This document shows positions 4,274-52,451 of a stretch of 64,000 nucleotides of DNA, piece by piece (position 1 is the first letter of the stretch; each line of letters opens with the position of its first letter). Source of the stretch: Alphaproteobacteria bacterium (GTDB taxonomy: Bacteria; Pseudomonadota; Alphaproteobacteria; UBA9219); assembly GCA_041908065.1 (NCBI GenBank), contig JAYRGC010000039.1:2481-66480 (forward strand), read 5' to 3'. A program made the translations under genes and the position numbers. The notes below the pieces were generated by a model that worked only from the letters and a program-made list of their open reading frames with translations, had not been told where the DNA came from and did no database searches.

Positions 4274-4510
4274 TCAGCCATCCTGCGGGAGCGCGGTGGT
4301 CAGGGCTAGGGCGTGGAGCACTCCGCCGACGCGCCCTTGCAGGGAGGCGTAGACCAGACGGTGTTGTTGTAGCCGAGTTTTGCCGATAAAGGCCTTGCTT
4401 TCCACATAGGCGGCGAAATGATCCCCGTCGCCGCGCAGATCCTTGACCTCCACCCGCGCGTCGGGGAAGGCCGCCTTTATCAATCGCTCTATTTCTCCAG
4501 TTTCCATCAT
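4274..4510 (-). CDS. bolA: BolA-family protein
   Basis: IERLIKAAFPDARVEVKDLRGDGDHFAAYVESKAFIGKTRLQQHRLVYASL matches the BolA fold signature. The annotated ORF start at 4597 is probably too long; an internal Met was chosen. Confidence 0.7.
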   Translation of the reverse strand: MMETGEIERLIKAAFPDARVEVKDLRGDGDHFAAYVESKAFIGKTRLQQHRLVYASLQGRVGGVLHALALTTALPQDG

Positions 4511-4747
4511 GTTCGGCATGTTGCACATGTTTGTCTTTTCTGTCGAGCCGATACTCGCGATGTTTGAAGCAATCCCATATAATAATTTGATGCACACCAG
4601 AAACGAAACTGAGGCCTTATGGCTTTATACGCTATCTCTATGATTTTAAACAAAACTATCGGCCAATTCGGTTTGTGATATGGGAATTGTTGCCTTGCCT
4701 TAATGATATTTTTGTGGAAGATTGCGGCAAGTCTTTCTTAATCATCA

Positions 4748-7393
4748 ATGGGTTATAAAGGCCAAATGCATATTGGAATAGATCTTGGAACTTCCAACAG
4801 CGTTATCGCTGGGATAGTCGACGGAGAGGCGAGGGTATTTCATCCCGCCGACGGCGGCGAGGTTTTGCCTTCGGTCATATATATCGACAAGCGCGGTCAT
4901 CGCCTTTATGGGCGCAGGGCGCACGATCAGGCTTTGGTGTCGCCGGAAAACGTGGCCTCGGGCTTCAAGCGTCTGATGGGCACGTCGACGCCGATAACGG
5001 TCAAGGGGGCGGAGGTCACTCTTACGCCGGAGGAGTGTTCGGCGGAGATAATTCGCCAGCTTTTGGGGCAAGTGACTACTGAAACCGGCGAGGAGAATTT
5101 CGACGGCGCGATTATAACCATTCCCGCCGCCTTCAATCAGATGCAGTCCGAGGCCACTTTGCGCGCCGCTCGCATGGCCGGATTGGAGCGCGTTGATTTG
5201 ATACAGGAGCCGATCGCGGCGGCTTTGGCCGCGATGGCGGGGGCTAAACGATCTGGGCAGTTCCTTATATACGATTTAGGCGGCGGAACGTTCGACGTGG
5301 CTTTGGCTCAGGCGATAGAGGGCAACGTCAGCATTGTGGCGCACCAAGGCATCAATATGCTGGGTGGACGCGATTTCGATCGCATGATAGTGAACGAGAT
5401 TGTCCGTCCGTGGCTTGTCGCCAATTTCGATTTGCCCGACAACTTCCAGCGCGATCCGCAATATGCGCGGCTTATCCGCATCGCCCAGCTGGCCGCCGAG
5501 AAAGCCAAGATAGACCTTTCCTCGCTGGAGGAGGCCTCGATATTCGCCTCCGACGACGAAGTTCGCTTGATGGATCAAAACGAGAGCGAGATATTCCTCG
5601 ACGCGCCTATAACCCGCGCCCAGTTTGAAGAGATAATCCGCGAGCCGGTGATGCACACCATAGATATGGTGCGAAAGCTGTTGGAGAGCAACAATTACAG
5701 CAACGACGACATCGACCGCATAGTCTTCATCGGCGGTCCCAGCCGCATTCCGATGGTGCGTGAGATGGTGTCGGAGGAATTGGGCATCGCTCCGGATCTT
5801 CGCACCGATCCCATGACGGCGGTGGCTATGGGAGCCGCTCATTATTGCGAGGGGCGGGAGTGGGACAAGGCCAAGGTTAAAGATTTCAAACCGGCGGCGT
5901 CGCCCGCCGCTGTAGGCGGCGGCAGTTCGCCCAAACCCAAGCACGCTTCGGTGTCGGTTCCTTATCAGGCCACGGCGGAGGTCAAGCCTGCGGCCAAGAC
6001 GGGGGCGGCGGCAGCGGCGGGGACAGCGGGTTTCGGGGTCACCTTCGATTACGATCGACGCACCACGGCGGAAAAAACCGTGCTGGCTTTGCATATAACC
6101 GGAAAGGCTAAGGACGATAATCAGGTTCGCATTTTCGCAGACGGTTGGGATTCCGGAGTGTTGCCTTTGGTGGACGGATTGACCGTGGTGGTTCCTTTAC
6201 GTTCCATGGGCGAAAACCGTTTTCGTTCGCAGGTATTGGACGCCTCCGGCAAGCCTATCGACGGATACGACGGCGACATAACAGTGACGCGAGTGGTGGC
6301 CATGGTCGGCAACATTCCCGCCGCCCAAACCATCGCCGTCAAGGTTTTGGAAAACCCCCATTCCCGCGAAAACGCCTTGATGACTTTGGTGGCCAAGGGC
6401 TCGCCTTTGCCTGCCGAAGGCCACGTCCGTTTCACCAGCGGACGTACGCTGCGATCCGGCGGCGCGGGGTATGTCGGCGTCGAGTTGTTTCAGGTCGAGT
6501 TTCCCGAGCGCGTGGATTTGAATCTGTGCATCGGCATGTTCAGGATAGACGGATACGATCTGCCGTCCGGAGCCGAGATAAAGGCCGGAGATCCTATATC
6601 GTTCGATTGGAACATGAGCGACGGCGGCATACTTCAGGCTACCGTCACGTTGCCCAAGATCGGATTGGAATTGCGCGCTCCTCGTTTTTACGCGCCGCAA
6701 TCGGGACAGGTGTCGTTCAGCGGCGAGGAAGGCAACGCCTTCGCTTCCTCGGTTCTTGATCGCGGCGACGAGGAATGGGGGGATCTGGCGGCGGCTTTGG
6801 GGCCGGACGGCGGGCCGGAAGCGCAGATGCTTCACTCCAGATTGCTGGAGCAGCGCGACGTGTTGAGCGAAGCAGCCGGAGACGCAGAAACCGTGCGCCG
6901 CGTTGTCGAGGAAGCCCGCTTCGTGCGGCAGGACATAGCGCGGCTGGGGCGCAAGCACATAGTTCGCACGTTGCAGCGGCGGTTGGGCAAATTGGTCGCG
7001 GTGTTCAACCGCGTCGCCCGTTCTTCCGCCGAGCAGGAGGAGGAGGCGAGGTTCGAGGAGCTTGAAGGCGCGGTGCAGAGGATAATCGACGACGGCGACG
7101 CCGCCGCTTGCGACGACGCGGCGATTTATCTCAGCGAAATGCGGAATCTGTTCTTCGGCGTGGTATGGCGCGACGACGACTATATCGCCACTTGGTTCAA
7201 ACGCCTGTGCGGCGAGCCGTATTTGTTCACCGACAAGGAAGTTTTCGCTGCCATGGTCGAAGAGGGCGAAGCCTTGCTGGCCAAAGGCGATCGCCCCGCC
7301 ATGCGGGATCTAGTCGCCAGAATGCTGGACGCTCGCATAGCTCTGGGAGTAAACGATATGGCCGGAGAGTTGGCCACCATAGTGAAGGCGTGA
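4748..7393 (+). CDS. atypical long Hsp70-family ATPase (non-DnaK paralog, HscC/YegD-like NBD plus divergent SBD and long helical C-terminal extension)
   Basis: The actin-like ATPase motifs are present: IGIDLGTSNSV (phosphate 1), IYDLGGGTFDVAL (phosphate 2) and the adenosine motif VFIGGPSRIPMV. A beta-sandwich SBD-like region is recognisable (ISFDWNMSDGGILQATVTL). The total of 881 aa is much longer than DnaK. The probable true start is 4766 (MHIGIDLG) with AAGG upstream. Confidence 0.8.
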   Translation: MGYKGQMHIGIDLGTSNSVIAGIVDGEARVFHPADGGEVLPSVIYIDKRGHRLYGRRAHDQALVSPENVASGFKRLMGTSTPITVKGAEVTLTPEECSAEIIRQLLGQVTTETGEENFDGAIITIPAAFNQMQSEATLRAARMAGLERVDLIQEPIAAALAAMAGAKRSGQFLIYDLGGGTFDVALAQAIEGNVSIVAHQGINMLGGRDFDRMIVNEIVRPWLVANFDLPDNFQRDPQYARLIRIAQLAAEKAKIDLSSLEEASIFASDDEVRLMDQNESEIFLDAPITRAQFEEIIREPVMHTIDMVRKLLESNNYSNDDIDRIVFIGGPSRIPMVREMVSEELGIAPDLRTDPMTAVAMGAAHYCEGREWDKAKVKDFKPAASPAAVGGGSSPKPKHASVSVPYQATAEVKPAAKTGAAAAAGTAGFGVTFDYDRRTTAEKTVLALHITGKAKDDNQVRIFADGWDSGVLPLVDGLTVVVPLRSMGENRFRSQVLDASGKPIDGYDGDITVTRVVAMVGNIPAAQTIAVKVLENPHSRENALMTLVAKGSPLPAEGHVRFTSGRTLRSGGAGYVGVELFQVEFPERVDLNLCIGMFRIDGYDLPSGAEIKAGDPISFDWNMSDGGILQATVTLPKIGLELRAPRFYAPQSGQVSFSGEEGNAFASSVLDRGDEEWGDLAAALGPDGGPEAQMLHSRLLEQRDVLSEAAGDAETVRRVVEEARFVRQDIARLGRKHIVRTLQRRLGKLVAVFNRVARSSAEQEEEARFEELEGAVQRIIDDGDAAACDDAAIYLSEMRNLFFGVVWRDDDYIATWFKRLCGEPYLFTDKEVFAAMVEEGEALLAKGDRPAMRDLVARMLDARIALGVNDMAGELATIVKA

Positions 7394-7413
7394 CACAAGA
7401 AAAGGGGGGCGGC

Positions 7414-8157
7414 ATGTCGATAGTTTCTTTTGCTCCGGCGTCGGAAGACGAGGCGCGTTCATTGCTGCGCGACATTGGCGCGGAAGTTAACTGGCCGTTG
7501 GGCAACGGCAGGACGGAGGATGTCCGCCTGTCTGCGGATTCCGTTCAAGTGATGGTCGCGGCATTGCCGTTTTACGACGAATATCGGATGTATTCGCTTT
7601 CCGACCGCTCTCAACCCGCGCCGAACACACGGTACGTTCTGGCCAAGGAGGGGGATATAGGCCTGTTGAATTGGACTAACGAGCCGATATACCTGATAAA
7701 CCAAAAGGCTCCGATAAAGCTGGATCGCAAGACGTTGGTCGCCTATTCCAAGTTTTTCTTCCATTACGTCCGCAACGAATTGGGGCGTTTCGTCATAGTT
7801 GAAAAGCCGGAGGACGTGGCGTGGCTGCCGGAGGCCGACGAGAAGGAAAAGGCCGCCGTCGCCGCCAAGCTGAAGCCGGTCACTTACAAGGGCATCGGGC
7901 GCGATAACTTGTTTTCTCTGGATTGCACAGTTATGTTCCGCAACGCTTTGTTTGCCACCAGCATCAAGGTCGCTCCGTACGAACTTGACGCCTTCGATCC
8001 AGAACAGGGGGCGACCGAGCATATGATCGTCGGGCAGATAAAACTCACCAACGGCGATTTGCTGCTCGAGGATTTACACGTCGATGTCGACCCCCCGCCG
8101 CAGGAGCTTAACAGCCCCAAGATAACCGAGATGAAAGACGAAGATTTTCCCGAATAA
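7414..8157 (+). CDS. hypothetical protein co-transcribed with the Hsp70 paralog
   Basis: The ATG is 20 nt after the Hsp70 stop and is preceded by AAAAGGGGGG. It encodes a 247-aa acidic cytoplasmic protein with no recognisable domain. The longer annotated ORF N-terminus overlaps the upstream gene and is rejected. Confidence 0.55.
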   Translation: MSIVSFAPASEDEARSLLRDIGAEVNWPLGNGRTEDVRLSADSVQVMVAALPFYDEYRMYSLSDRSQPAPNTRYVLAKEGDIGLLNWTNEPIYLINQKAPIKLDRKTLVAYSKFFFHYVRNELGRFVIVEKPEDVAWLPEADEKEKAAVAAKLKPVTYKGIGRDNLFSLDCTVMFRNALFATSIKVAPYELDAFDPEQGATEHMIVGQIKLTNGDLLLEDLHVDVDPPPQELNSPKITEMKDEDFPE

Positions 8158-8170
8158 ATTAAAGATATTT

Positions 8171-8247
8171 GCGCCCTTAGCTCAGTTGGATAGAGCGGCT
8201 GCCTTCTAAGCAGCAGGTCAGAGGTTCGAATCCTCTAGGGCGCGCCA
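8171..8247 (+). tRNA. tRNA-Arg (anticodon TCT)
   Basis: Cloverleaf: acceptor GCGCCCT/AGGGCGC, D-arm GCTC..GAGC, anticodon stem GCTGC/GCAGC with loop CTTCTAA, T-arm GAGGTTCGAATCCTC, discriminator plus CCA encoded. Confidence 0.85.
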
Positions 8248-8265: not shown

Positions 8266-8347
8266 TTCCCTGAGCCTGTCGAAGGGAACTTACGCGATCA
8301 AAGCGCGGCAATCTCCCGCAGTCGCTTCGACAGGCTCAGCGACCGCG
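8266..8347. repeat. family-C palindromic repeat (core GAGCCTGTCGAA / TTCGACAGGCTC in inverted orientation)
   Basis: Two copies of the 12-nt core in opposite orientation, each flanked by short IRs. The same core recurs at 19125-19184, 36265-36289, 37797-37808 and 38054-38078. Confidence 0.8.
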
Positions 8348-8353
8348 TTTCGA

Positions 8354-9862
8354 CTACTCCACCAACCGCATGGTGGGGAAGGCGATGACTTCGCGGATGG
8401 TTTGGCTGTCGGTCATCAGCATCCCAAGGCGGTCGATGCCGATTCCAAGCCCGCCCATCGGCGGCATGCCCAACGCCAAGGCTTCGATGAAATCCTCGTC
8501 TATCGGATGCGGAGGATCGTCGGGGCCGCGTTTCTGCTCTGCTTGCTCCAGAAAACGGGCGCGTTGTTCGCGGGGATCGTTAAGCTCGCTGAAGGCGTTG
8601 GCGATTTCCCAGCCGTTGACGTAGGTCTCGAACCGTTGCGCCACATGCGGCCTGTCCGGCCACGCTTTGGCCAGAGGAGATATTTCCTTGGGCAAGTCGA
8701 TTACGTGTACGGGCTGGATCAGCTTGTCTTCGACTTTTTCGCCGAACACCGCTTCCACCACCTGCCCCCAGCTGGTGCCCGGGTCGATCGCAACGCCCAA
8801 TTTACGCGCCATCGCCCGCGCTTCGTCGCCGTTCTTGCACGACGCGAAATCCTGTCCGGAGTGCTCAAGGATAAGCTCGACCATTCCTTTGCGCGGCCAC
8901 GGCGGGGTGAAGTCAAGCTCCACGTCCGCAAATTTGATTTTTCCGCTGCCGTGCAACGTCATGGCGACGTGGTGGATTATCGTCTCGGTTATATCGATCA
9001 TCGCGTTGAAATCCACATACGCTTGGTATAGCTCAAGCGACGTAAACTCCGGGTTGTGCTTGGGGCTGATGCCCTCGTTGCGGAAGCAGCGGTTTATCTC
9101 GAATAGCTTTTCCGACAGCCCGCCTATCACCAGCCGCTTGAGATGCAGCTCTGGTGCTATCCGCATGTAAAGCGGCATGTCCAGCGCGTTGTGATGGGTG
9201 ACGAAGGGGCGGGCGATGGCTCCGCCGGCGATGACGTGCATCATCGGGGTTTCGACTTCGATGAAGCCGCGTTCGTAAAGGAACTGGCGGATCGAGGCCA
9301 CCATGCGGTAACGCGCCCGCAGGGTTTCGCGGGTGCGAACGTTGGCCACCAAATCCTGCTCGCGGTGACGAAAGCGGGCTTCCACGTCCTTGAGGCCGTG
9401 GAATTTCTCGGGCGGCGGGATGAGGGCTTTGCTCAAAACCATAAGCTCGTCGGCGTCCACGGTTATCTCTCCGCGGGGAGTGCGACGCACTTTGCCCGAT
9501 ACTCCGATGATGTCGCCCAGATCCAGCAACTTCAGCAGCTCGGCGCGCTTGGCCTCGGTTTGCTTGAGATCGTGAAACACCTGCAAACGGTCGCTGTCGT
9601 CCATGACGTCGATGAACATGCCGTTGTTACGGACGGACATGACGCGTCCGGCCACGCGCACGACGGCGTCGGTTTTTTCTCCGGCGGCCAGATGCTCGAA
9701 ACGCTTTTTTATCGCGGCGGCGGAATCCGTCTTGTCGAACTTGGTGACGTGGAAGGGATTGCCGCAAAGCTCGGTTATCTTGTCCAATCGGGAGGAGCGG
9801 CGCGAAATCTCGTCTTCGGGGGCGGCAGAAACGTTTTCAGAAATGGTGGCGGATTCGGTCAT
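8354..9862 (-). CDS. lysS: lysine--tRNA ligase, class II
   Basis: OB-fold N-terminus plus class II motifs (FRNEGIS motif 2 ... GGLGIGIDRLGMLMT motif 3). Length 502 aa. Confidence 0.9.
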   Translation of the reverse strand: MTESATISENVSAAPEDEISRRSSRLDKITELCGNPFHVTKFDKTDSAAAIKKRFEHLAAGEKTDAVVRVAGRVMSVRNNGMFIDVMDDSDRLQVFHDLKQTEAKRAELLKLLDLGDIIGVSGKVRRTPRGEITVDADELMVLSKALIPPPEKFHGLKDVEARFRHREQDLVANVRTRETLRARYRMVASIRQFLYERGFIEVETPMMHVIAGGAIARPFVTHHNALDMPLYMRIAPELHLKRLVIGGLSEKLFEINRCFRNEGISPKHNPEFTSLELYQAYVDFNAMIDITETIIHHVAMTLHGSGKIKFADVELDFTPPWPRKGMVELILEHSGQDFASCKNGDEARAMARKLGVAIDPGTSWGQVVEAVFGEKVEDKLIQPVHVIDLPKEISPLAKAWPDRPHVAQRFETYVNGWEIANAFSELNDPREQRARFLEQAEQKRGPDDPPHPIDEDFIEALALGMPPMGGLGIGIDRLGMLMTDSQTIREVIAFPTMRLVE

Positions 9863-9864
9863 GG

Positions 9865-10119
9865 TTATCCCTTCTCGGTTTCAATTTTATTGCTCGGCCT
9901 ATCGCGTAGCCAAAGGCGCACATTGTGCTTCACTTCGCCACGCGAGTCGAGTTTAGGCATGGGCAACCAGCTAACATGGGCGCGTTGTAGGCTTAGAGCG
10001 CAGCTTTTTTTTACTGATCTATCGGTAATTAGCCGAGGCCAACTCTCTGACCAGCTCTTTTCTAAGCCATAATTCATATGTGCGATATACGTTATTGCCA
10101 ATGGATTTGCCGTTTGCAA
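9865..10119 (-). pseudogene. degenerate duplicated fragment of the 3' end of the downstream methyltransferase gene
   Basis: The translated segment KLDSRGEVKHNVRL (9921-9960) parallels ELDLWREVKHNKPV at the C-terminus of the MTase at 11071-11110. The two DNA copies share attgtgcttcacttcgc and agtcgagtt. Confidence 0.4.
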
Positions 10120-10951
10120 AAGGTTTTAACATCTCAATTGTAGAAGTTGAGTCCGACACTATGTAGTTAACACCCTCGGAAATGCTAACAATGTTGGCAA
10201 AACCACGACGCCCATCGGAGAATATTTCCTGTATCCCCCGCATTTTTTCGTCACTCATCAAACTTCTTGCATCCCATATTTCTATCTGCCCTATCCACAA
10301 ATCCCCACTGCGCAACGTCAGATATTTTTCATCCCGCAAAAGAGAAGCCGTCGGTTCCGAGGTTATAGTTGAACTGGTCTCCTCAAAATAACGCTTTGCC
10401 CCATCGCTTCCAAAATCTGTATGACCGGATATTTCCTCATAGGCTGAGATGTCTCTCGCAGTTGTTATCCTGCTGCGGAAATTAAGTGTGTTGGAAACTA
10501 TCGCCGCCAACAGCAGCTTGTAACTGGTAGCATTGAGCGAGTTTGCGTGGCCGTTTTCCTTGATTTTTTCCCAAACTATCGTAGCGCACGCGCCAACCGG
10601 AACTATCCATGAGCGGACGTCATGGCGAGTGTTCCAATGGCTTTCAAATCCATAGTGGTGGTCGAATACTTCAGTGATTTTATTGTGGTTCACTATGGGG
10701 TCGAAAAAATCGGGGTTTGATACGTCCATAACCACGAAATCGCATGCATCATCAGGAAGGGCATAGTCCTTGGCCGATTTCCATATGGTGGGCAGTTTTC
10801 GCAACATGGGAGGCACGGTGGCGTTGAGCGATGGCGTAAACAACACCATGGCCTTATCTCCACGTTTTCCGAGATAATCTCCGTAAGCCTCGGCGCAAGC
10901 CAGTGCGTCTATGTCTATGTGGCCGCTGCCGCTTGTCACAATTATCGTCAT
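10019..10951 (-). CDS. DHH-family phosphoesterase-like protein
   Basis: DHH motifs are present: GHIDIDALA (motif I, DxD), VMDVS (II) and FDHHYG (III, DHH). The gene is clearly lower in GC than its neighbours. Confidence 0.55.
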   Translation of the reverse strand: MTIIVTSGSGHIDIDALACAEAYGDYLGKRGDKAMVLFTPSLNATVPPMLRKLPTIWKSAKDYALPDDACDFVVMDVSNPDFFDPIVNHNKITEVFDHHYGFESHWNTRHDVRSWIVPVGACATIVWEKIKENGHANSLNATSYKLLLAAIVSNTLNFRSRITTARDISAYEEISGHTDFGSDGAKRYFEETSSTITSEPTASLLRDEKYLTLRSGDLWIGQIEIWDARSLMSDEKMRGIQEIFSDGRRGFANIVSISEGVNYIVSDSTSTIEMLKPFANGKSIGNNVYRTYELWLRKELVRELASANYR

Positions 10952-10984
10952 GGGTTTGCCAATTTTTAAAATCGCATTTGGTTG

Positions 10985-11713
10985 CTATCCAACGAAATGA
11001 TGCGGCTCGCGCCGGAACAGCATGGCGTAGGTTTCGCGTTCGTATTCCATGCCGTGCATGGTGACTGGCTTATTGTGCTTCACTTCGCGCCATAAGTCGA
11101 GTTCCGGCGCGAAAAAATCCAATATCCGCCTGCGGGTGAAGAGTATGGACGCTATTCCGTTGACGGGATCCAGCACCACTTCTTCTCCGGATTCCGGATC
11201 CTGATCGTTCGGGCGTTGGCGATAGCGGCCATAGTAACCGTCGCCGACGCTGGCGAAGGACAGCATATAGTGTCCGCGCGCCCCCAGAACGTTCAGAAGA
11301 TTCTGCTTGTAGGCGATTCGCAGTTCGAGCGGTGAGATGTGCTTGAAGCAAAAAGCGTCCACCACCAGATCCACGTCGTCGCGGCCTATCGGCCAAGGTT
11401 CGGTCACATCGTGAACCAGCTGGCGTATTTTTTCCTTAAGTCCGAATCGGGATGCCGCTTCGGCCAGCGACGAGATGGCGTTGGGGGTAAAGTCCATCGC
11501 CGTTACGCTCATTCCTTGCGAGGCGAGGTAAAGCGAATTGCGCCCTTTGCCGCAACCGACGTCGACAGCGGTTTGCAATCTGGCCTTGTGGTTTTTCAGT
11601 TCCTCGACAGCCCACACGACCGAGCCTGAAGGCGTGGCGCGGACGGAAGACGGGATACCGCCCGCTTCGTATTCTTCGTTCCAAAGTTCCGACGGACTGC
11701 GGTGTTCGGACAT
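10985..11713 (-). CDS. class I SAM-dependent methyltransferase, TehB-like
   Basis: VDVGCGKGRNSLYLASQGMSVTAMDF resembles the TehB SAM-binding motif LDLGCGNGRNSLYLA. The start was chosen at MSEHRS. Confidence 0.7.
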   Translation of the reverse strand: MSEHRSPSELWNEEYEAGGIPSSVRATPSGSVVWAVEELKNHKARLQTAVDVGCGKGRNSLYLASQGMSVTAMDFTPNAISSLAEAASRFGLKEKIRQLVHDVTEPWPIGRDDVDLVVDAFCFKHISPLELRIAYKQNLLNVLGARGHYMLSFASVGDGYYGRYRQRPNDQDPESGEEVVLDPVNGIASILFTRRRILDFFAPELDLWREVKHNKPVTMHGMEYERETYAMLFRREPHHFVG

Positions 11714-12322: not shown

Positions 12323-12399
12323 GGGCCTGTAGCTCAGTTGGTTAGAGCAGGCCGCTCATAACGGTCTGGTCGTAGGTTCAAGTCCTACCGGGCCCACCA
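12323..12399 (+). tRNA. tRNA-Met (anticodon CAT), elongator-type
   Basis: Acceptor GGGCCTG/CGGGCCC with a paired 1:72, D-arm GCTC/GAGC, anticodon stem GGCCG/CGGTC with loop CTCATAA, T-arm GTAGGTTCAAGTCCTAC, CCA encoded. Confidence 0.8.
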
Positions 12400-40094: not shown

Positions 40095-42506
40095 TTACTT
40101 GCGATCCGACAAGCCTTTGTTCATTTTGTCGGCCATGGTTTCCAGCAATTTCATAACGCCGCCCGACAATCCGGTCTTCAGAACCGCGCCGCCGTAGTCC
40201 TTGTCTTCATCGCCGGATCTTTCAAGTTTGGATTCCAGAGCGGCTTCCATAAGGTCTTTGTCTTCGCTGAACGGCTTTGATTGCGCCGCAGTCACGCCGT
40301 TGCCGTTAGGATGGGCGTGGCCGTTTCCGTATTCGGCGCGGCTGATTTCGTCGATGGCGAACTCGTCGCCCGATTGCAGCAACGGAACGCCTTCGGGTTG
40401 CGATGCGGAAATCTGGGTCGGAAAACCGGATTCCGAGGCGGCTCGGGCAACCGAAGGCAAGGGCGGTTTGGCGGGAGAAGCCGCCGCCGCTTTGGCCGGT
40501 TGCGGCGCGGTCGTGGCGATATGAGCCAGAACCGAGGCCGTTTTATCCACGCCGCCGGATTTCGCCTCGGCCAGAGCGTCGGCAATCATGGAAATCTCCG
40601 CCGCCGTCGTGGCCGCCGGAGGAGACGCAGTGGCGGCCTTCCAATCCTTGTCCGACAGGCGGGTGGCCAATTCGGCCAAGGCGCGTTCTCTTGCCGTCGA
40701 GACGGTCGTTGTGGCCGGAACCGGCAGCATGTGGTGAACCCGCAAGGCCTTCACCTTGTCGGCCACGGCGTGGAACAGGCGGGCGCGGGAGATATACTCG
40801 GCGAACAGCATATGCACTTCGCCTTCGCGCTGGGTGCGAAGGTGGTCGTAGTCGGCGCGCACGCGCGATTGCGCCGCGCCCGCTCCGCGATCGTCGTAGA
40901 ACGGCGCGGTCATAAACAGGCTGGAGATGGTGTTGGTGGGGGAGGTCATGCCGCGATTTTCCATCACCCACGACGTGCCGACGTGTTCTTGGAAGAATTT
41001 TTTGGTTTCCGTCGGATCCTCGATTTTTCCAAATATCTTGAGGTTGCAGTTGCCGAGGATTGATTGCGCCTCTTGCTTGACGCGCTTTTCCATCGACGGC
41101 AAATCTTGCGCCGCGAATATCAGCGAGAAACCGAGCGAACGCGCTTGCGCCGCCATCACGGCCATGCCTTGGGCTGTGTAGTAGCCGACTTCGTCGAACA
41201 CCGTCATAAACGACGAGCTGGAGCGCGTTTGCTTGCTGCCGATTGCGCTTTCCCAGCTGCCCTCGACCGTGTTGCCCAGCGTCGCGCCCATCATGCCCTT
41301 GAGGCTAGCGGCGACGATTTTGCCTAAGTTGGCGGCTTCGTCGCCGGATTTTTCCAAGGCCGGAATCAGGCCGACCAGAATGCGGCGGTTCAGCACCACG
41401 TCCAAGACGTCGACGTCGGCCAGCTGCGCCTTGAAGATATAGCCGTATTCGTCGCCCAAAGACTGCAGCGAGCGGGTGAATTGCATCGACAGGTAGCCGT
41501 GTTGTTGCCGCGCCACCGACAAGTCGTACATCGGTTGTTCCGGCGAGGGGGGCTTTTCGTTGCCTTCGTCGTCGAAGGCCGCGTCGACGAAGCCCGGCAG
41601 GGTATTCAGGTATCCCCGCAGGGCGCGCAAAACGCGCTCGGGCAGGGTTTGGTCGCGGGAGAGGCGGATTATGGGCTTCAGCTCGATATATTCGCGCAAC
41701 ACGCCCACGTCCAACAATAATCCCTGCTTGTCGCGCTTGAACGTCAGCGCGGGCATCAACGCGCCCATCAGCGCGACGGCGCGTTCCTTCCACATGGCGT
41801 TGTCGCCGCCAGCGTCCGGCATCAGGCTGGTAACCATGTTCGTCAGATAAGATGCCGAGCCGTTGGCGAACGGGTTCATGGTGTTGGAGACGGCCCCGCT
41901 GTCGGAGTTGGCTGTCATGTAGTTGAGCACTAGCAGATCGTCATCGCGACCGAAACGACGGGCGATGGCGTACAGCGAAGCCCAAAGATCGGTGTCGGCC
42001 TTGCCATCGACGTAGACGAAGCCGGATCCCCATGCGAGGGAATTGACCACCAACGATTTCAGACCTTCGGTCTTTCCCGATCCAGTCGTGCCCAGAAACA
42101 GGATATGCGTGCGAGCGTCGCTATTGGTTAGCCACAATTCCCGCCCGTGATCGGGGTTCTCGGCGTCGTCGACTACGCCCAGATATAATATACCCTCCGA
42201 TTTTCCCGCGCCGGATTTTCCGGGCGGGGCGTTGTGTTTGTCCGGCAGTCCGGCGTTTTTGGGGAATTTGAACGGCATGACGAAGGGGCGTTTGCTCATC
42301 CATCTCGCGTAAAACAGCACGCAGAATAAGGCAATATCAGACCAAGCGTAGACTTCGGGCAAGACAATCAATGTGACGGACACGGCGGCCAACGCCGCCG
42401 CGAACATTTTTGTCTGTCCCCAGTAATCGGCGATACGCACCGACGCCGGCCGGACGTCGCGCATAAGATTGCGCCGAGCTATTGCGTGTTTGGGGAGAAT
42501 CGTCAT
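40095..42506 (-). CDS. type IV secretion coupling protein (T4CP; TraD/VirD4/DotL-like) homolog, orphan
   Basis: Two N-terminal TM helices, Walker A HILFLGTTGSGKTEGL, a downstream VYVDGKADTDLW block, Walker B SSFMTVFDEVGYY, and a long low-complexity Ala/Pro-rich acidic C-terminal tail. Confidence 0.55.
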   Translation of the reverse strand: MTILPKHAIARRNLMRDVRPASVRIADYWGQTKMFAAALAAVSVTLIVLPEVYAWSDIALFCVLFYARWMSKRPFVMPFKFPKNAGLPDKHNAPPGKSGAGKSEGILYLGVVDDAENPDHGRELWLTNSDARTHILFLGTTGSGKTEGLKSLVVNSLAWGSGFVYVDGKADTDLWASLYAIARRFGRDDDLLVLNYMTANSDSGAVSNTMNPFANGSASYLTNMVTSLMPDAGGDNAMWKERAVALMGALMPALTFKRDKQGLLLDVGVLREYIELKPIIRLSRDQTLPERVLRALRGYLNTLPGFVDAAFDDEGNEKPPSPEQPMYDLSVARQQHGYLSMQFTRSLQSLGDEYGYIFKAQLADVDVLDVVLNRRILVGLIPALEKSGDEAANLGKIVAASLKGMMGATLGNTVEGSWESAIGSKQTRSSSSFMTVFDEVGYYTAQGMAVMAAQARSLGFSLIFAAQDLPSMEKRVKQEAQSILGNCNLKIFGKIEDPTETKKFFQEHVGTSWVMENRGMTSPTNTISSLFMTAPFYDDRGAGAAQSRVRADYDHLRTQREGEVHMLFAEYISRARLFHAVADKVKALRVHHMLPVPATTTVSTARERALAELATRLSDKDWKAATASPPAATTAAEISMIADALAEAKSGGVDKTASVLAHIATTAPQPAKAAAASPAKPPLPSVARAASESGFPTQISASQPEGVPLLQSGDEFAIDEISRAEYGNGHAHPNGNGVTAAQSKPFSEDKDLMEAALESKLERSGDEDKDYGGAVLKTGLSGGVMKLLETMADKMNKGLSDRK

Positions 42507-45889: not shown

Positions 45890-46966
<1,077 letters not shown>

Positions 46967-48464: not shown

Positions 48465-50729
48465 TCACCTGAGATTTAGCCGTTGGGCGTTCACTACCAC
48501 GATTATGGATGAAGAGGCCATAGCCACGGCGGCTATCAACGGAGTGACGTGCCCCAGCATGGCCAGCGGCACGGCCAGCGCGTTGTAGGCGAAGGACATT
48601 ATGAAATTCTGGCGCACCAGACTTTCCGCCCTTTTGCTGGTGGACATCGCCTCGATCACCGGAGCCAGCGCGTCGCCCTGAAACACTATGTCGGCGGCGT
48701 TTTGAGTTATGTCCAGCGCGGAAGAAGGAGACATCGACACGTCGGCGGCGGACAGCGCGGGCGCGTCGTTCAGCCCGTCGCCAACCATCAGCACGCGCTT
48801 GCCCGAGCTTCGCATCGCCTCGATGGCCGCGCATTTCTCCGCCGGTTTCAGGCCGGAGCGGAAATCAGAAATGCCCAGAGCGCGGGCGGCGGATTCCACC
48901 ACCTTGGCGCGGTCGCCGGACAGCAAAACCACCTCGCATCCCATGCTTCGCAGTTTTTCGACCACTTCTTTCGCGTCGCTCCGCAATTCGTCGGCGAAGG
49001 CGAAGCGGGTCGGAGGCTCTTCCTCGATCTTCAGCCACAGCTCAGGCCTGTCGTCGTTGGGAGCGGCCATGTCGCCGCACCAGTCGCGGCGTCCCAGCCG
49101 CGTACGCCGCCCTTCGACGACGCCTTCCATGCCTTGGCCGGAGGTTTCGGAAACTTCAAACGCTTGCGGAGCGACGCAATCTTTCCCGACCTCGGACATT
49201 AAGGCCTTGGCGAGGGGATGGCGGCTGTGGGCGGCGAGGGCGGCGGCCAGACGCAAGCGGTTGTTCGCTGTGATCGTGGCCGAGGATGTGGCCGTGCCGG
49301 TTTCTACGATTTCCACCAGCTTGGGCTTGCCCATGGTGAGCGTTCCGGTTTTGTCGAACGCTATCACATCCACGTCGGCCAGACGTTCGATCGCGTCGGC
49401 TGATTTCAGCAGCATTCCGCGCTTGAACAGCCTGCCGCTGGCCAGAACCTGAACGGCGGGGACGGCAAGCCCCAAGGCGCAGGGGCAGGTGATGATTAAA
49501 ACCGTCATTGCCGTCAGCAACGCCGGTTGCCATGCCGTTCCCAAGGCCAGCCAAACGGCGAACGTGCCGAACGCCAGAATATGCACGACGGGCGTGTACC
49601 ATCTCGCCACGCGATCGGCCAGACGAACGTATAGGGCGTGGCCTTGTTCGGCCTTTTCCATCAGCTTGATGACCTCGGCAAGCAGGCTTTCTTCTCCGGC
49701 TGCGGTGATGCTGACGGTTATCGGCGACAGGACGTTGACCATCCCGCCGAACACCCGAGATCCTTCTTCCACCGGCTGCGTGACAGTTTCTCCGGTAATA
49801 AAGCTGGGATCTATTTCCGATCTGCCGCCTTCCACTACTCCGTCGGCGGCGACGCGCTCTCCGGCGGCTATTTGCAGGATCATTCCCGATTTCAGCTCTC
49901 TTATCGGCAAGATGCGGCGGTTGCCGCCGGATTCCACCACCGTGGCCGATCCGGCCATCATGGCCAATAAATCCTGCGCCGCCGCGCGGGCGCGGCCTCG
50001 GGTTTTACGATCGAGATAACGTCCTATCAGCAGCAAGAACAACAGCATGACGACGGAATCGAAATACGAATGCTCGCCGTGGTTTATGGTTTCGAAAAGG
50101 CTCATCGCGGTGGTGAGGATCAAGGCCACAGATATGGGAACGTCCATGTTGGCGCGGCCATGCCTTAGGGCGTTCCATGCCGAGGCGAAGAACGGGCGGC
50201 CTGCGTAAAGCATGGTGGGAATGGAGATCAACGCCGCCGTCCAGTGCATCATGGAGCGGGTGGCGAAGCCCATGGTTTCGGTCGAAGAAGACCACAATCC
50301 CACCGACAGCAGCATGATGTTGCCGGAGGCGAATCCGGCCACGGCCATGCAGCGCATCAGGAAACGCTCCTCCCGCCTGTCGTCGTTATCCAGTTGTTTT
50401 TGATCGAAGGGCATGAACTTATAGCCCTTGGCGGCGGCGATGCCGATAAGCTCGTTTGCGCGGGAGGGATCGCCTTTCCAGCGCAAGGCCAGACGCTTGG
50501 TGGTCAGATTGACGCGGGCGGAAACTTCGGCTTCGGCGTTGAGGACGTTTTCTATGAGAAAGGCGCAGGAGGCGCATTTGATCCCCTGCACCATCAGATA
50601 TATGGCGTTTTCCTCCCCCTCGCGCAGGACGAACGGCGAATAATCCTGAACGCTCGAGTTGTCGTCTTTGTTTTCTTCCACCACAAGGTCTCCGTAGGCA
50701 AGTGACAAGGGACAGGTCTTTACTCGCAT
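48465..50729 (-). CDS. heavy-metal (Cu+-type) translocating P1B-type ATPase
   Basis: N-terminal HMA domain GIKCASCAFLIENVL, TM CPC motif ITCPCALGLA, DKTGTLT phosphorylation site, and GDGLNDAPAL hinge. The ORF-track N-terminal 270 aa overlap rnj and are rejected; the start is at MRVKT. Confidence 0.85.
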   Translation of the reverse strand: MRVKTCPLSLAYGDLVVEENKDDNSSVQDYSPFVLREGEENAIYLMVQGIKCASCAFLIENVLNAEAEVSARVNLTTKRLALRWKGDPSRANELIGIAAAKGYKFMPFDQKQLDNDDRREERFLMRCMAVAGFASGNIMLLSVGLWSSSTETMGFATRSMMHWTAALISIPTMLYAGRPFFASAWNALRHGRANMDVPISVALILTTAMSLFETINHGEHSYFDSVVMLLFLLLIGRYLDRKTRGRARAAAQDLLAMMAGSATVVESGGNRRILPIRELKSGMILQIAAGERVAADGVVEGGRSEIDPSFITGETVTQPVEEGSRVFGGMVNVLSPITVSITAAGEESLLAEVIKLMEKAEQGHALYVRLADRVARWYTPVVHILAFGTFAVWLALGTAWQPALLTAMTVLIITCPCALGLAVPAVQVLASGRLFKRGMLLKSADAIERLADVDVIAFDKTGTLTMGKPKLVEIVETGTATSSATITANNRLRLAAALAAHSRHPLAKALMSEVGKDCVAPQAFEVSETSGQGMEGVVEGRRTRLGRRDWCGDMAAPNDDRPELWLKIEEEPPTRFAFADELRSDAKEVVEKLRSMGCEVVLLSGDRAKVVESAARALGISDFRSGLKPAEKCAAIEAMRSSGKRVLMVGDGLNDAPALSAADVSMSPSSALDITQNAADIVFQGDALAPVIEAMSTSKRAESLVRQNFIMSFAYNALAVPLAMLGHVTPLIAAVAMASSSIIVVVNAQRLNLR

Positions 50730-50771
50730 ATAATTGTGGCACGAAGGCGTTTCTGTGGCTATAAGGCCAAA

Positions 50772-52451
50772 ATGACACATAAACGCAAAGACTCCCATCG
50801 TCCGCCCGAAGACGCGCTGTGGTTCCTGCCTTTGGGGGGATCGGGCGAGATCGGGATGAACCTCAGCCTTTACGGAACCGCCGGAAAGTGGCTGATGGTC
50901 GATTGCGGCATAACCTTTCCCGACGACATGACTCCCGGGATCGAGGTTATAATGCCGGACATTTCCTTCATCGCCGATCGCCGCGACGATCTGGTAGGGT
51001 TGGTTTTGACCCACGGACACGAAGACCACTTGGGCGCGGTGGAGTATCTTTGGCAGCATTTGCGGTGTCCGGTGTATACTACTCCATTCACCGCCGGCAT
51101 TTTGCGTTCTAAATTGTCGCATTCGGGGCAAGAGCGCAGCGTCCGCATAATCGAACAACCGATAGGCTGTAACTTCACGACAGGGCCGTTTTCGGTCGAG
51201 ATGATCCACGTCACCCATTCGATACCCGAAGCGCACATGTTGTTGATAACCACGCCCTGCGCCAAGGTTTTGCACACCGGCGACTGGAAGCTGGATCCCG
51301 ATCCCGTTATAGGCCCCTTGACCGACGAGGCGCGGCTTAAACGGCTGGGTAACGAAAAAGTGACGGCGTTGGTGGGGGATTCCACTAACGCTCCGGTTCC
51401 TGGGCGCTCCGGTTCGGAGATGAGCGCGCGCGAAGGCTTGGACGCGATATTGGGGCGGTGGAAACACCGCGTGGCGGTGACGTGCTTCGCCAGCAACGTC
51501 GCCCGCATCAAGTCGATAGCGGCGGCTGCGGCCAAGCATGGCCGCAAGACGGCCTTGGTGGGGCGGTCGCTATGGCGCAATTCCGAGATAGCCGAAGCCT
51601 GCGGGTATCTGCCGGAGTTCAACGATTTTCTTGAACCGGCTGAGGCCATGCGGCTGCCGAAAAGCAAGGTTCTTTTGATATGCACCGGATGCCAAGGCGA
51701 GCAACGCGCCGCGCTTTCGCGCATCGCTTCCCAAGATCATCCCGAGGTGAAGCTGGACAAGGGCGACGCGGTGATATTCTCCTCGCGCGACATTCCCGGG
51801 AATGAACGCGCCATCGGCAGGACGCAAAATCTTTTGATCAAGAACGGAGTGGAAGTGATAACCTCGCACGAGGCTCCGGTTCACGTTTCCGGCCATCCTT
51901 GCCGCGACGAGGTTGCCGATTTGTACAGGTGGGTAAAGCCGAAATTCTCGGTTCCTGTTCATGGAGAGCTGAGGCACCAGACGGCGCATGCCAGAATAGC
52001 CGCGGAATGCGGAGTTAGCGAAATCATCATCGCCGAAAACGGGATGACGATAGATCTTTCGCGCGGGGCTCCGGCAGCCGTAGCCAGAGCGCACCATGGA
52101 CGCATAGGAATGGACGGCAGGGTCTTGCGGACGCTCGCCGGCGACACGTTGAAGCACCGCCGTCGGCTCAGCAACGACGGAGCCTTGGTCGTCACTCTGG
52201 CCATAGACGGGCGAGGCAAGCTGGCGGGGGATCCGCAACTGTCGATAATGGGGCTGGACGAGGGCGAATATCTGGACGACATGCGCGACGAGCTGGCGGC
52301 TGAAATACGCACCGCCGTGCGCTCCTTGGGACGCCGCGATGCCGAAGACGACGATTGCGCCAAAAAGGCGGTCATGAAGGCGGTTCGCCATCTTTTGACG
52401 GAATCCCACGGCAAACGCCCGATGATCGAAATCCATCTGGTAAGGGTTTAG
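50772..52451 (+). CDS. rnj: ribonuclease J (beta-CASP metallo-beta-lactamase family)
   Basis: LVLTHGHEDHLGAVEYL (HxHxDH) with beta-CASP and C-terminal domains. About 560 aa. Confidence 0.85.
   Translation: MTHKRKDSHRPPEDALWFLPLGGSGEIGMNLSLYGTAGKWLMVDCGITFPDDMTPGIEVIMPDISFIADRRDDLVGLVLTHGHEDHLGAVEYLWQHLRCPVYTTPFTAGILRSKLSHSGQERSVRIIEQPIGCNFTTGPFSVEMIHVTHSIPEAHMLLITTPCAKVLHTGDWKLDPDPVIGPLTDEARLKRLGNEKVTALVGDSTNAPVPGRSGSEMSAREGLDAILGRWKHRVAVTCFASNVARIKSIAAAAAKHGRKTALVGRSLWRNSEIAEACGYLPEFNDFLEPAEAMRLPKSKVLLICTGCQGEQRAALSRIASQDHPEVKLDKGDAVIFSSRDIPGNERAIGRTQNLLIKNGVEVITSHEAPVHVSGHPCRDEVADLYRWVKPKFSVPVHGELRHQTAHARIAAECGVSEIIIAENGMTIDLSRGAPAAVARAHHGRIGMDGRVLRTLAGDTLKHRRRLSNDGALVVTLAIDGRGKLAGDPQLSIMGLDEGEYLDDMRDELAAEIRTAVRSLGRRDAEDDDCAKKAVMKAVRHLLTESHGKRPMIEIHLVRV

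Follow-up and report, generated by a model that had tools for sequence, protein, structure and literature searches.

A large Hsp70 paralog and its partner gene

The stretch of DNA analysed here (64,000 nt of assembly GCA_041908065.1 from an Alphaproteobacteria bacterium of the GTDB lineage UBA9219, contig JAYRGC010000039.1, positions 2,481 to 66,480 of the forward strand), called the window throughout, carries a gene for a large, atypical Hsp70 paralog that is directly followed by a gene for a smaller protein, the partner. For the uncharacterised family of large Hsp70s to which the first protein belongs we coined the name Hsp70-L. Judged by gene order and conservation across genomes, the two genes are a real, conserved, operon-like two-gene unit with a linkage that is not universal. 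As described in an initial annotation of this DNA, both open reading frames (ORFs) lie between bolA and a tRNA-Arg gene:

4748-7393, + strand: ORF 1, longest reading of the large Hsp70 paralog (881 amino acids, aa)
4766-7393, + strand: Hsp70-L, the large atypical Hsp70, in its 875-aa form
7402-7409, + strand: Shine-Dalgarno sequence of the partner gene, AAGGGGGG, within the 20-nt spacer
7414-8157, + strand: ORF 2, the partner (247 aa)
4274-4597, - strand: bolA (PF01722)
8171-8247, + strand: tRNA-Arg(TCT), beginning 13 nt past the partner stop, a neighbour without implied membership in the module
8267-8342, no strand: inverted repeat I1 in the gap between tRNA-Arg and lysS (21-nt arms, 90% complementary, 34-nt loop)
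8354-9862, - strand: lysS, convergent to the Hsp70/partner pair

The stop codon of Hsp70-L (TGA, 7391-7393) is followed by a spacer of 20 nt and then by the ATG of the partner, and the strong Shine-Dalgarno sequence that the initial annotation had pointed out is indeed present in this spacer. A terminator scan found none between Hsp70-L and the partner and none between the partner and tRNA-Arg, and the I1 repeat probably serves as a bidirectional terminator that closes the unit. The true start of Hsp70-L is probably ATG 4766, giving 875 aa, because homologs start with MYIGIDLG, the public gene call has 875 aa, and a TTAA element of the upstream region lies at -27/-28 from this ATG only. Residue numbers of Hsp70-L given below nevertheless follow the 881-aa numbering.

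Hsp70-L keeps the ATPase domain and lacks the J-protein-coupling features of DnaK

Hsp70-L is composed of 4 regions, beginning with a nucleotide-binding domain (NBD) and including a part that resembles the beta subdomain of the Hsp70 substrate-binding domain (SBD):

4766-5863, + strand: actin-like NBD, residues 7-372
5864-6031, + strand: basic low-complexity linker, residues 373-428 (56 aa), with a conserved S-x-P-K-P motif and an isoelectric point (pI) of 9.9
6032-6691, + strand: beta-rich region, residues 429-648 (~220 aa), comprising an extra N-terminal beta-sandwich and then an SBD-beta-like domain
6692-7390, + strand: acidic helical C-terminal region, residues 649-881 (233 aa), with nine helices between 659 and 862 and a pI of 4.66

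The NBD is complete, as proposed initially. All 3 motifs that had been quoted for it (IGIDLGTSNSV, IYDLGGGTFDVAL, and FIGGPSRIPMV) are found in the translation, PF00012 reaches 226.2 bits (cut-off, 20.6), and residues D12, K74, E154, D176, G178-180, T181, and D183 do not vary among 36 homologs. In the alignment, D12, K74, E154, D176, T181, and D183 are the equivalents of DnaK D8, K70, E171, D194, T199, and D201, and the intact motifs suggest that the ATPase domain is catalytically competent. The PF00012 match is limited to residues 9-368 (profile positions 2-373 of 599), and BLASTP finds 32% identity to the NBD of alphaproteobacterial DnaK and no similarity beyond the NBD. Sequence models put this domain closest to DnaK and HscA, with HscA as the second-best model, and the scores stay far below the respective cut-offs for DnaK (TIGR02350, 248.7 versus 822.55 bits; NF001413, 242.5 versus 648) as well as for HscA (TIGR01991, 213.6 versus 708.55 bits). 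An ordinary HscC/YegD identity, which the initial annotation had named as the finding that would speak against its view, was not borne out for YegD (NF008673, 65 versus 331 bits). Searched against PADLOC-DB 2.0, Hsp70-L matches only PDC-M61B (E=6e-5, over NBD residues 152-347) and no system.

Coupling of DnaK to J-proteins depends on Arg167, which contacts the J-domain, and on the hydrophobic interdomain linker VLLLDV. The RIINEP motif of DnaK aligns with and reads VDLIQEP in Hsp70-L, so that the J-domain-contacting arginine is replaced by an aspartate (D150, at least 90% conserved); in every Hsp70-L examined, the position is D, V, A, S, or T. The VLLLDV linker is missing, and the basic low-complexity SxPKP segment, in which S393 and K396 are invariant, is found in its place. 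No dnaJ or grpE gene lies near the pair, and neither Hsp70-L nor the partner contains an HPD motif, in agreement with the earlier reading. A search of the window with one J-domain protein query gave no match, and a canonical dnaK gene was not found there either.

An SBD that is divergent but recognisable had also been proposed. At the fold level this is right because Foldseek aligns the AlphaFold2 model of Hsp70-L (predicted local distance difference test score, pLDDT, 78.7; predicted template modelling score, pTM, 0.71) with DnaK and BiP over their full length (680-790 columns; target-normalised TM-scores of 0.64-0.78). At the sequence level, Pfam, NCBIfam, PDB sequence profiles, and hhalign gave no significant match past residue 368. 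The best 50 Foldseek matches in the PDB are DnaK, BiP, Hsc70, Ssb, and mortalin chains. The model contains 15 strands between residues 430 and 644 with pLDDT mostly of 75-92, and the linker falls below 50 over residues 375-390 and 410-426. When compared to DnaK SBDs by hhalign (E=0.27), the segment CIGMFRIDG..DPISFDWNMSDGGILQATV is paired with DnaK LGQFDL.GI..PQIEVTFDIDANGI, and the same alignment sets the classic LGxFxLxGI...IEVTFDIDANGI against CIGMFRIDG...PISFDWNMSDGGILQA. The SBD of Hsp70-L thus appears recognisable at the level of fold and motif only. The C-terminal extension of about 240 residues that had been noted is long, helical, and acidic as described, but it is not the only source of extra length, which comprises the 56-aa linker, the additional beta-sandwich ahead of the SBD-beta-like part, and the 233-aa helical tail. 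For this tail we found no Pfam or PDB sequence match and no match to a repeat family.

The partner is a stand-alone copy of a widespread domain

Profile searches of the partner found no match in Pfam, NCBIfam, PHROGs, or PDB sequences, as anticipated from its lack of any recognisable domain, and its only match in PADLOC-DB 2.0 is Csx19 at E=0.025. We find that it represents, in stand-alone form, a ~215-aa domain missing from Pfam. It has 370 close homologs, and when 1.84 billion representatives were searched with a profile built from 28 partners, 1017 representative clusters matched at E<=1e-3 (452 at E<=1e-10), with matches that span profile positions ~4-222 and lie at the C-termini of 800-2363-aa proteins. 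The unit occurs in 4 forms, i.e., alone, as tandem duplicates, as 3 copies behind TPR repeats (e.g., P0276, encoded in the complete genome AP018449.1), and as one copy at the very C-terminal end of the 800-2363-aa proteins. A Pfam scan of 34 large fusion proteins revealed ankyrin repeats in 22, nSTAND1 in 12, TIR in 2, a caspase domain in 1, and TPR in at least 4 of them, and the motifs LPFY, WTNEPIY, FFFH(F/Y)VRGxLGRF, FKNALF, and PPxxFG survive in these fusions. Among STAND NTPases, nSTAND1 forms a clade that belongs to counter-invader systems (PMC8195603). No Hsp70 gene was found near the fusion genes at the loci examined, and neither PHROGs nor phage genomes yielded homologs. A weak sequence match to NTF2-like YybH (E=0.6) is a lead only.

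The window partner and its nearest relative (P0122) have an N-terminal insert (NWPLGNGRTEDV) and a 15-aa acidic C-terminal extension, both of which are absent from the usual 224-aa form that ends in a conserved DPPPGEFG motif. Several other loci carry other forms of the domain. On the Sinorhizobium meliloti plasmid pEm1132b (locus L129, 1370-14474), a ~1650-aa ankyrin-repeat protein ending in the partner domain (WP_339073313.1) is encoded next to a patatin-like phospholipase, a SUMF1/EgtB/PvdO-family protein, and a caspase-family protein, which is a conflict-type neighbourhood in a cultured host. In locus L118 (5853-7850) and also in L119 and L120, a conserved protein of 665-696 aa is encoded directly upstream of an nSTAND1/ankyrin/partner-domain gene; its identity is hinted at solely by weak similarity to the YpsA SLOG family (E=0.039), and we rejected the idea that the gene upstream of the nSTAND1 fusion is a relative of Hsp70-L because no relation was found. 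A metagenome-assembled genome (MAG) of the Syntrophobacteraceae (L051, 8819-17161) encodes a tandem-duplicated 484-aa partner near a 1597-aa protein with an N-terminus that looks TIR-like by eye only (VFLSYARGDD).

The two genes are inherited vertically and are often adjacent

For both proteins, close homologs were found in uncultured Alphaproteobacteria, Micavibrio, and 'Bdellovibrionales' MAGs, a mixture of labels that arises because NCBI files Micavibrio under Bdellovibrionales. Identities to these homologs are 57-70% for the Hsp70 and 56-71% for the partner, whose homologs are mostly 224 aa long, and mean column identity amounts to 65% and 70%, respectively. Both genes are vertically inherited and under strong purifying selection in a housekeeping setting.

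We studied gene neighbourhoods in two ways. Scanning GTDB species representatives with the partner profile gave 61 loci with up to 10 kb of flank each, 45 of which are informative in that they include enough upstream DNA; Hsp70-L lies immediately upstream of the partner in 16/45 of them, with gaps of 25-118 nt, and 720 nt away in 1/45. Conversely, a metagenome scan with the Hsp70 tail gave 29 informative close-clade loci, and the partner is found directly downstream in 22/29 (gaps of 34-146 nt) and within 0.7-3.2 kb in 3/29. The linkage, which the initial annotation had proposed to check across genomes, is real without being universal. Besides the window, there are 38 adjacent pairs with gaps of 25-146 nt, and the 2 genes are kept together although their flanking genes differ between several housekeeping contexts. 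In a neighbour-joining tree of the partner, adjacency is spread over the clade and the unlinked arrangement forms a nested subclade, and the unlinked genes of the Hsp70 tree sit at a matching position. It seems likely from these trees that the linkage is ancestral and was later broken in one sublineage in which both genes were kept.

In some relatives (L001, 13395-17690, as well as L028, L064, and L094), the pair adjoins a cluster of cobT, cobS, and a J-domain-protein gene. We presume that this cluster is the usual neighbour of bolA in Alphaproteobacteria, and the bolA adjacency in the window may for this reason be a remnant of an ancestral cobT/cobS/J-domain neighbourhood.

Relatives of Hsp70-L on plasmids and Tn7-like elements

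Outside of the lineage, the C-terminal half of Hsp70-L matches ~830-aa 'Hsp70 family proteins' on 13 plasmids with a coverage of 87-99%. The hosts are Sinorhizobium, Aminobacter, Polaromonas, Aeromonas, Shewanella, and Vibrio, and examples include WP_259477022.1 of Shewanella xiamenensis, WP_011797927.1 of Polaromonas naphthalenivorans, and WP_037424976.1 of Sinorhizobium. The Shewanella plasmid protein aligns with the window Hsp70-L from end to end, tail included (875/830 aa, 35% identity, E=2e-163). Hsp70-L is monophyletic in a neighbour-joining tree rooted with DnaK, in which the plasmid and soil members branch off basally, with the chromosomal clade of the window nested among them.

In Shewanella and Aeromonas, Hsp70-L is cargo of Tn7-like elements directly after tnsD and tnsE. 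On the Shewanella xiamenensis and Aeromonas caviae plasmids, the cassette begins with the gene for a 123-aa protein, followed by those for Hsp70-L (~830 aa), a classical AAA ATPase that has IetA-like PADLOC matches, and a membrane protein, and the same combination of 123-aa protein, Hsp70-L, AAA ATPase, and membrane protein lies near zorA on the Polaromonas plasmid pPNAP01. Together, these cassettes are found at loci L125 (5469-13256), L127 (6469-14393), and L126 (5475-11510). The plasmid-borne Hsp70-L proteins have no PADLOC match and the cassette genes form no PADLOC 2.0 system; we consider the cassette of the Tn7-like cargo and Polaromonas a candidate new defence system. No copy of it was found in Escherichia coli genomes.

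The Sinorhizobium cassettes encode, in this order, a membrane protein of 636 aa, a protein of 118 aa, and Hsp70-L (L128, 4428-9227; L124, 1540-8227), and their surroundings comprise restriction, toxin-antitoxin, and Gabija-like genes. They are flanked either by restriction endonuclease, Fic/VbhA, RelE/ParE, and methyltransferase genes or by a DNA methyltransferase gene together with genes for a UvrD-type helicase and an ATP-dependent endonuclease. An ISNCY transposase interrupts Hsp70-L in S. medicae. The membrane proteins of Sinorhizobium and Shewanella share the cysteine-containing motif Q-[IV]-RYC...DYN-x-RC-x-SFRY.

The ~120-aa protein encoded upstream of plasmid Hsp70-L is homologous to the one that precedes Hsp70-L in the soil-metagenome clade (hhalign probability 99%), and we found no relation between it and the window partner. 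The idea that this small protein could be GrpE-like was dropped because Pfam finds nothing and a PDB profile search returned no GrpE. None of the plasmid cassette genes for small protein, membrane protein, and AAA ATPase is present in the window.

A conserved upstream region

The following features lie upstream of Hsp70-L:

4598-4765, + strand: AT-rich intergenic spacer between bolA and Hsp70-L, with 37.5% GC versus 57.9% in the whole window, holding ortholog-conserved elements
4700-4707, + strand: TTAATGAT, a degenerate copy of a TTAACC(A/T)(T/A) box that is conserved at -75 to -95 in orthologs
4726-4741, + strand: GGCAAGTCTTTCTTAA, a conserved upstream element with its TTAA 28 nt before ATG 4766
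4754-4759, + strand: TATAAA, a -10-like hexamer 7-12 nt before ATG 4766

In orthologs (L004-L103), the typical layout is TTGCA-TTAACC(A/T)(T/A) at -75 to -95, then GGCAAA-N3-(T/C)TTCTTAA, then a TATAAA-like hexamer, and it stays constant whichever gene precedes Hsp70-L. TTAACC occurs in 21/33 unique orthologous upstream regions versus 1.4% of background 90-nt windows, and TTAACCAT, which we take to be equal to the Caulobacter CtrA half-site, occurs in 8/33 versus 0.16% of the background. Most close-clade orthologs keep the TTAA at -27/-28 regardless of the upstream gene, and a TATAAA- or TATATA-like hexamer is found at -13 to -7 in orthologs, most of which have no Shine-Dalgarno sequence. Because of this hexamer position, the Hsp70-L transcript is possibly leaderless or has a very short leader.

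The promoter-like spacer of the initial annotation is AT-rich as stated and holds conserved elements. A scan found no sigma70 consensus on its + strand. The sigma32-type promoter that had been suggested as a check did not turn up either, since the pattern CTTG-N16-19-YYTAT is present in 0/38 orthologous upstream regions (0.7 in shuffled controls). A promoter motif shared with the unlinked partner genes was considered as well and rejected, as those genes have a different, ordinary-looking promoter.

Comparison to described systems

Similar to canonical DnaK, Hsp70-L has an NBD of actin-like fold with all catalytic motifs, and its model aligns along the whole length of the protein including the SBD-beta-like domain and the helices that follow. 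Unlike DnaK, it has no R167 and no VLLLDV linker, carries an extra beta-sandwich and a ~230-aa tail, shows no sequence similarity past residue 368, and is encoded without dnaJ or grpE nearby. Like HscA with HscB/IscU, HscC, and YegD, it is an Hsp70 paralog encoded beside a candidate working partner, but isc genes and a J-protein partner are lacking, and Hsp70-L is 250-400 aa longer. The ~830-aa proteins of plasmids and Tn7-like elements belong to the same family and have likewise lost the R167 contact; in contrast to the window pair, they are found in mobile or defence contexts with the ~120-aa upstream protein, a membrane protein, and sometimes an AAA ATPase.

Of the architectures described so far, that of CnuD from type III CoCoNuT systems comes closest, judging by its published description. 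CnuD consists of an Hsp70 NBD and SBD followed by HEAT-like helical repeats and may be a separate gene in a conflict system, where it works with a McrB-like (NxD) GTPase (CnuB) and a McrC homolog (CnuC) and has degenerate Walker A-like motifs (PMC11090510). Hsp70-L differs by its intact ATPase motifs, and no McrB/McrC-like ORFs are present within 4 kb on either side of the window pair. GTPase-centric conflict systems include combinations of DO-GTPase, tubulin, and HSP70 as well as GAP1-N2 with GrpE and DnaJ-FNIII (PMC7159879, Kaur et al. 2020). They share with our pair an Hsp70-type ATPase, which in those multi-gene conflict systems is the NTPase under regulation, whereas no GTPase, tubulin, GrpE, or DnaJ-FNIII gene adjoins the window pair.

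NLR-like proteins with nSTAND1 and ankyrin (or TPR) parts such as WP_339073313.1 resemble the window locus in that their C-terminal ~215 aa are homologous to the partner. In these fusions the domain lies behind a STAND NTPase and repeats with no Hsp70 nearby, whereas the window partner is a free protein encoded after Hsp70-L. Compared to the eukaryotic Hsp110/Grp170 proteins, Hsp70-L is similar in overall size and in its order of NBD, beta region, and long helical region, but its surplus length is located ahead of the SBD-beta-like part and in the tail, and there is no sign of nucleotide-exchange activity. Our literature search found no description of the Hsp70-L family, the partner domain, or their pairing, in line with the earlier impression that cassettes of this kind are poorly characterised.

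What the pair might do

Our tentative favourite, to which we would give a probability of roughly 45%, is a lineage-fixed, domesticated role of the pair rather than one as a mobile defence island. It starts from the observed architecture, conservation, vertical inheritance, operon-like spacing, and family relationships of the two proteins. The pair would be a two-protein, ATP-driven machine that is a fixed part of the chromosome in a lineage of Alphaproteobacteria related to Micavibrio. In this machine, Hsp70-L would have kept the Hsp70 ATPase and the SBD-like beta domain, lost the J-protein-coupling features, and gained the beta-sandwich and the ~230-aa helical tail. The partner, presumably co-transcribed, would be a free-standing domain of the binding or sensor type that acts either as a target recognition module or itself as a dedicated client of Hsp70-L, and Hsp70-L would clamp and remodel the partner or its target in an ATP cycle without a J-protein. 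The outcome could be a split, chaperone-driven analogue of the logic by which a STAND NTPase is joined to a sensor. Physical interaction of the two proteins, independence of J-proteins, and the direction of action are what we infer here. Coupling is supported by the persistence of adjacency next to differing flanks, which argues that the pair is independent of its flanking genes.

Several observations weigh against such a role. No Hsp70-L gene lies within the available flank at 28/45 informative partner loci, and 4/29 Hsp70-tail loci have no partner. More broadly, the partner domain is widespread without any Hsp70 and Hsp70-L is widespread with the different ~120-aa small partner, and neither protein strictly needs the other because each family occurs widely without the other. 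The helical tail is not specialised for the window partner because it is a family-wide feature that includes the plasmid-borne relatives. Furthermore, the model of the partner is only moderately confident (pLDDT 65.8), and its fold had no significant counterpart in Foldseek searches of PDB and BFVD (E>=0.04, query-normalised TM-score <=0.21).

One competing view is that the pair is an active conflict system, be it anti-phage, abortive infection, or predator-prey, in which the partner senses an invader molecule and Hsp70-L is the NTP-driven switch or effector, like the STAND NTPases of the fusions. The initial annotation had suspected a conflict connection, and this suspicion is plausible given that the partner domain is fused into nSTAND1, ankyrin, TPR, TIR, and caspase architectures and lies beside patatin, SUMF1/FGS-type, and caspase genes on the Sinorhizobium meliloti plasmid, and that outside-lineage Hsp70-L is found in Tn7-like cargo and in plasmid defence islands near ZorA, restriction, Fic/VbhA, RelE/ParE, and Gabija-like genes. 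The chromosomal clade is also nested within mobile and soil branches, and Hsp70-like proteins are known from conflict systems (PMC7159879; PMC11090510). We nevertheless regard an active conflict function of the window pair as unlikely, as both genes are inherited vertically with 60-70% identity over many species-level genomes, sit in housekeeping contexts of normal GC with no known defence genes flanking them in the window, and have a conserved promoter architecture. PADLOC offers only the NBD-level match to a candidate system (E=6e-5), no phage homologs were found, and no effector domain is recognisable in either protein. More specifically, the pair could be a split, chaperone-driven immune or surveillance sensor whose free partner recognises an invader- or damage-derived ligand, as the domain presumably does at the tails of nSTAND1/ankyrin NLR-like proteins, and whose Hsp70-type ATPase, rather than a STAND NTPase, triggers the response, a scenario that we would bet against at this point. 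As an alternative within it, the free partner might be the cellular 'guardee' of which the STAND fusions carry integrated decoy copies. If the split-sensor scenario were true, the plasmid and Tn7 Hsp70-L cassettes would amount to a type of Hsp70-based defence not described before, and the copy in the window would be one that has become part of the core genome in a predatory or episymbiotic lineage.

At the opposite extreme, the two genes could be neighbours by shared ancestry only, with Hsp70-L as an extra general chaperone and the partner as an unrelated, lineage-specific housekeeping protein. The 28 unlinked loci, in which the partner adjoins atpH/atpA and rsmB or folC and addAB, fit with this idea, as do the 2 stand-alone Hsp70-L genes amid tmk, holB, and ribosomal protein genes (L116 and L117) and the existence of each family without the other outside the lineage. 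Yet mere neighbourhood seems improbable to us in view of same-strand, short-gap adjacency in 38 loci despite differing flanks, the 20-nt spacer of the window with a Shine-Dalgarno sequence and no terminator, an adjacency that appears ancestral in the clade, and the absence from Hsp70-L of the interfaces that a general DnaK-type chaperone uses. Two readings from the initial annotation are close to excluded. The likeness to Hsp110/Grp170, by which Hsp70-L would be a bacterial counterpart acting as nucleotide-exchange factor or holdase for the cell's DnaK, does match the length of 875 aa and the order of NBD, beta region, and extended helical region. However, no Hsp110 chain is among the best 50 Foldseek matches, the extra length is placed by the model ahead of the SBD-beta-like part and in the helical tail, the NBD is nearest to DnaK/HscA by sequence models, and family relatives reside in mobile cassettes. 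Equally far-fetched, if not slightly more so, is the idea of recently acquired accessory DNA integrated at a tRNA-Arg hot spot, which was suggested by the abutting tRNA gene and the AT-rich spacer upstream. It is contradicted by a GC content that over 4.7-8.2 kb is the same as in the flanks, by flanking housekeeping genes (flagellar genes, bolA, lysS, coaX, birA, and nuoL), and by orthologs throughout the lineage in several other housekeeping contexts. Moreover, we found no second copy of the tRNA-Arg 3' end anywhere in the window, no repeats bracketing the module, and no integrase-like ORF in the list of adjacent ORFs.

Should the domesticated-machine picture hold, the ~830-880-aa proteins would form a distinct Hsp70 subfamily in which the catalytic site is kept and the J-domain-receiving residues are lost, i.e., a natural model for an Hsp70 cycle free of J-proteins. 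The partner would define a new domain family (1017 clusters, not in Pfam), and its free, conserved copy offers a tractable route to what this domain binds at the tails of NLR-like STAND proteins. Cultured Shewanella, Aeromonas, Polaromonas, and Sinorhizobium carry Hsp70-L and so provide experimental handles on a possible Hsp70-based conflict system. The value of our analysis lies in the definition of these families and of a testable link between them rather than in a demonstrated function.

Other features of the window

Elsewhere in the window, a weak actin/Hsp70-like match (46334-46615, - strand; 33% over 102 aa to DnaK) lies inside a 346-aa ORF (45890-46930) that probably encodes an MreB/FtsA-type protein. 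A conjugative coupling protein resembling TrbC/TraD (E=1e-111) and a P-type ATPase for heavy metals are encoded at 40095-42506 and 48465-51539 and may mark an integrated conjugative element unrelated to the Hsp70-L pair. GC falls to 0.46 at 10001-11000, over a DHH-family gene (10019-10951, - strand) that resembles Mn-dependent pyrophosphatase, and a tRNA-Met gene is located near this dip at 12323-12399.

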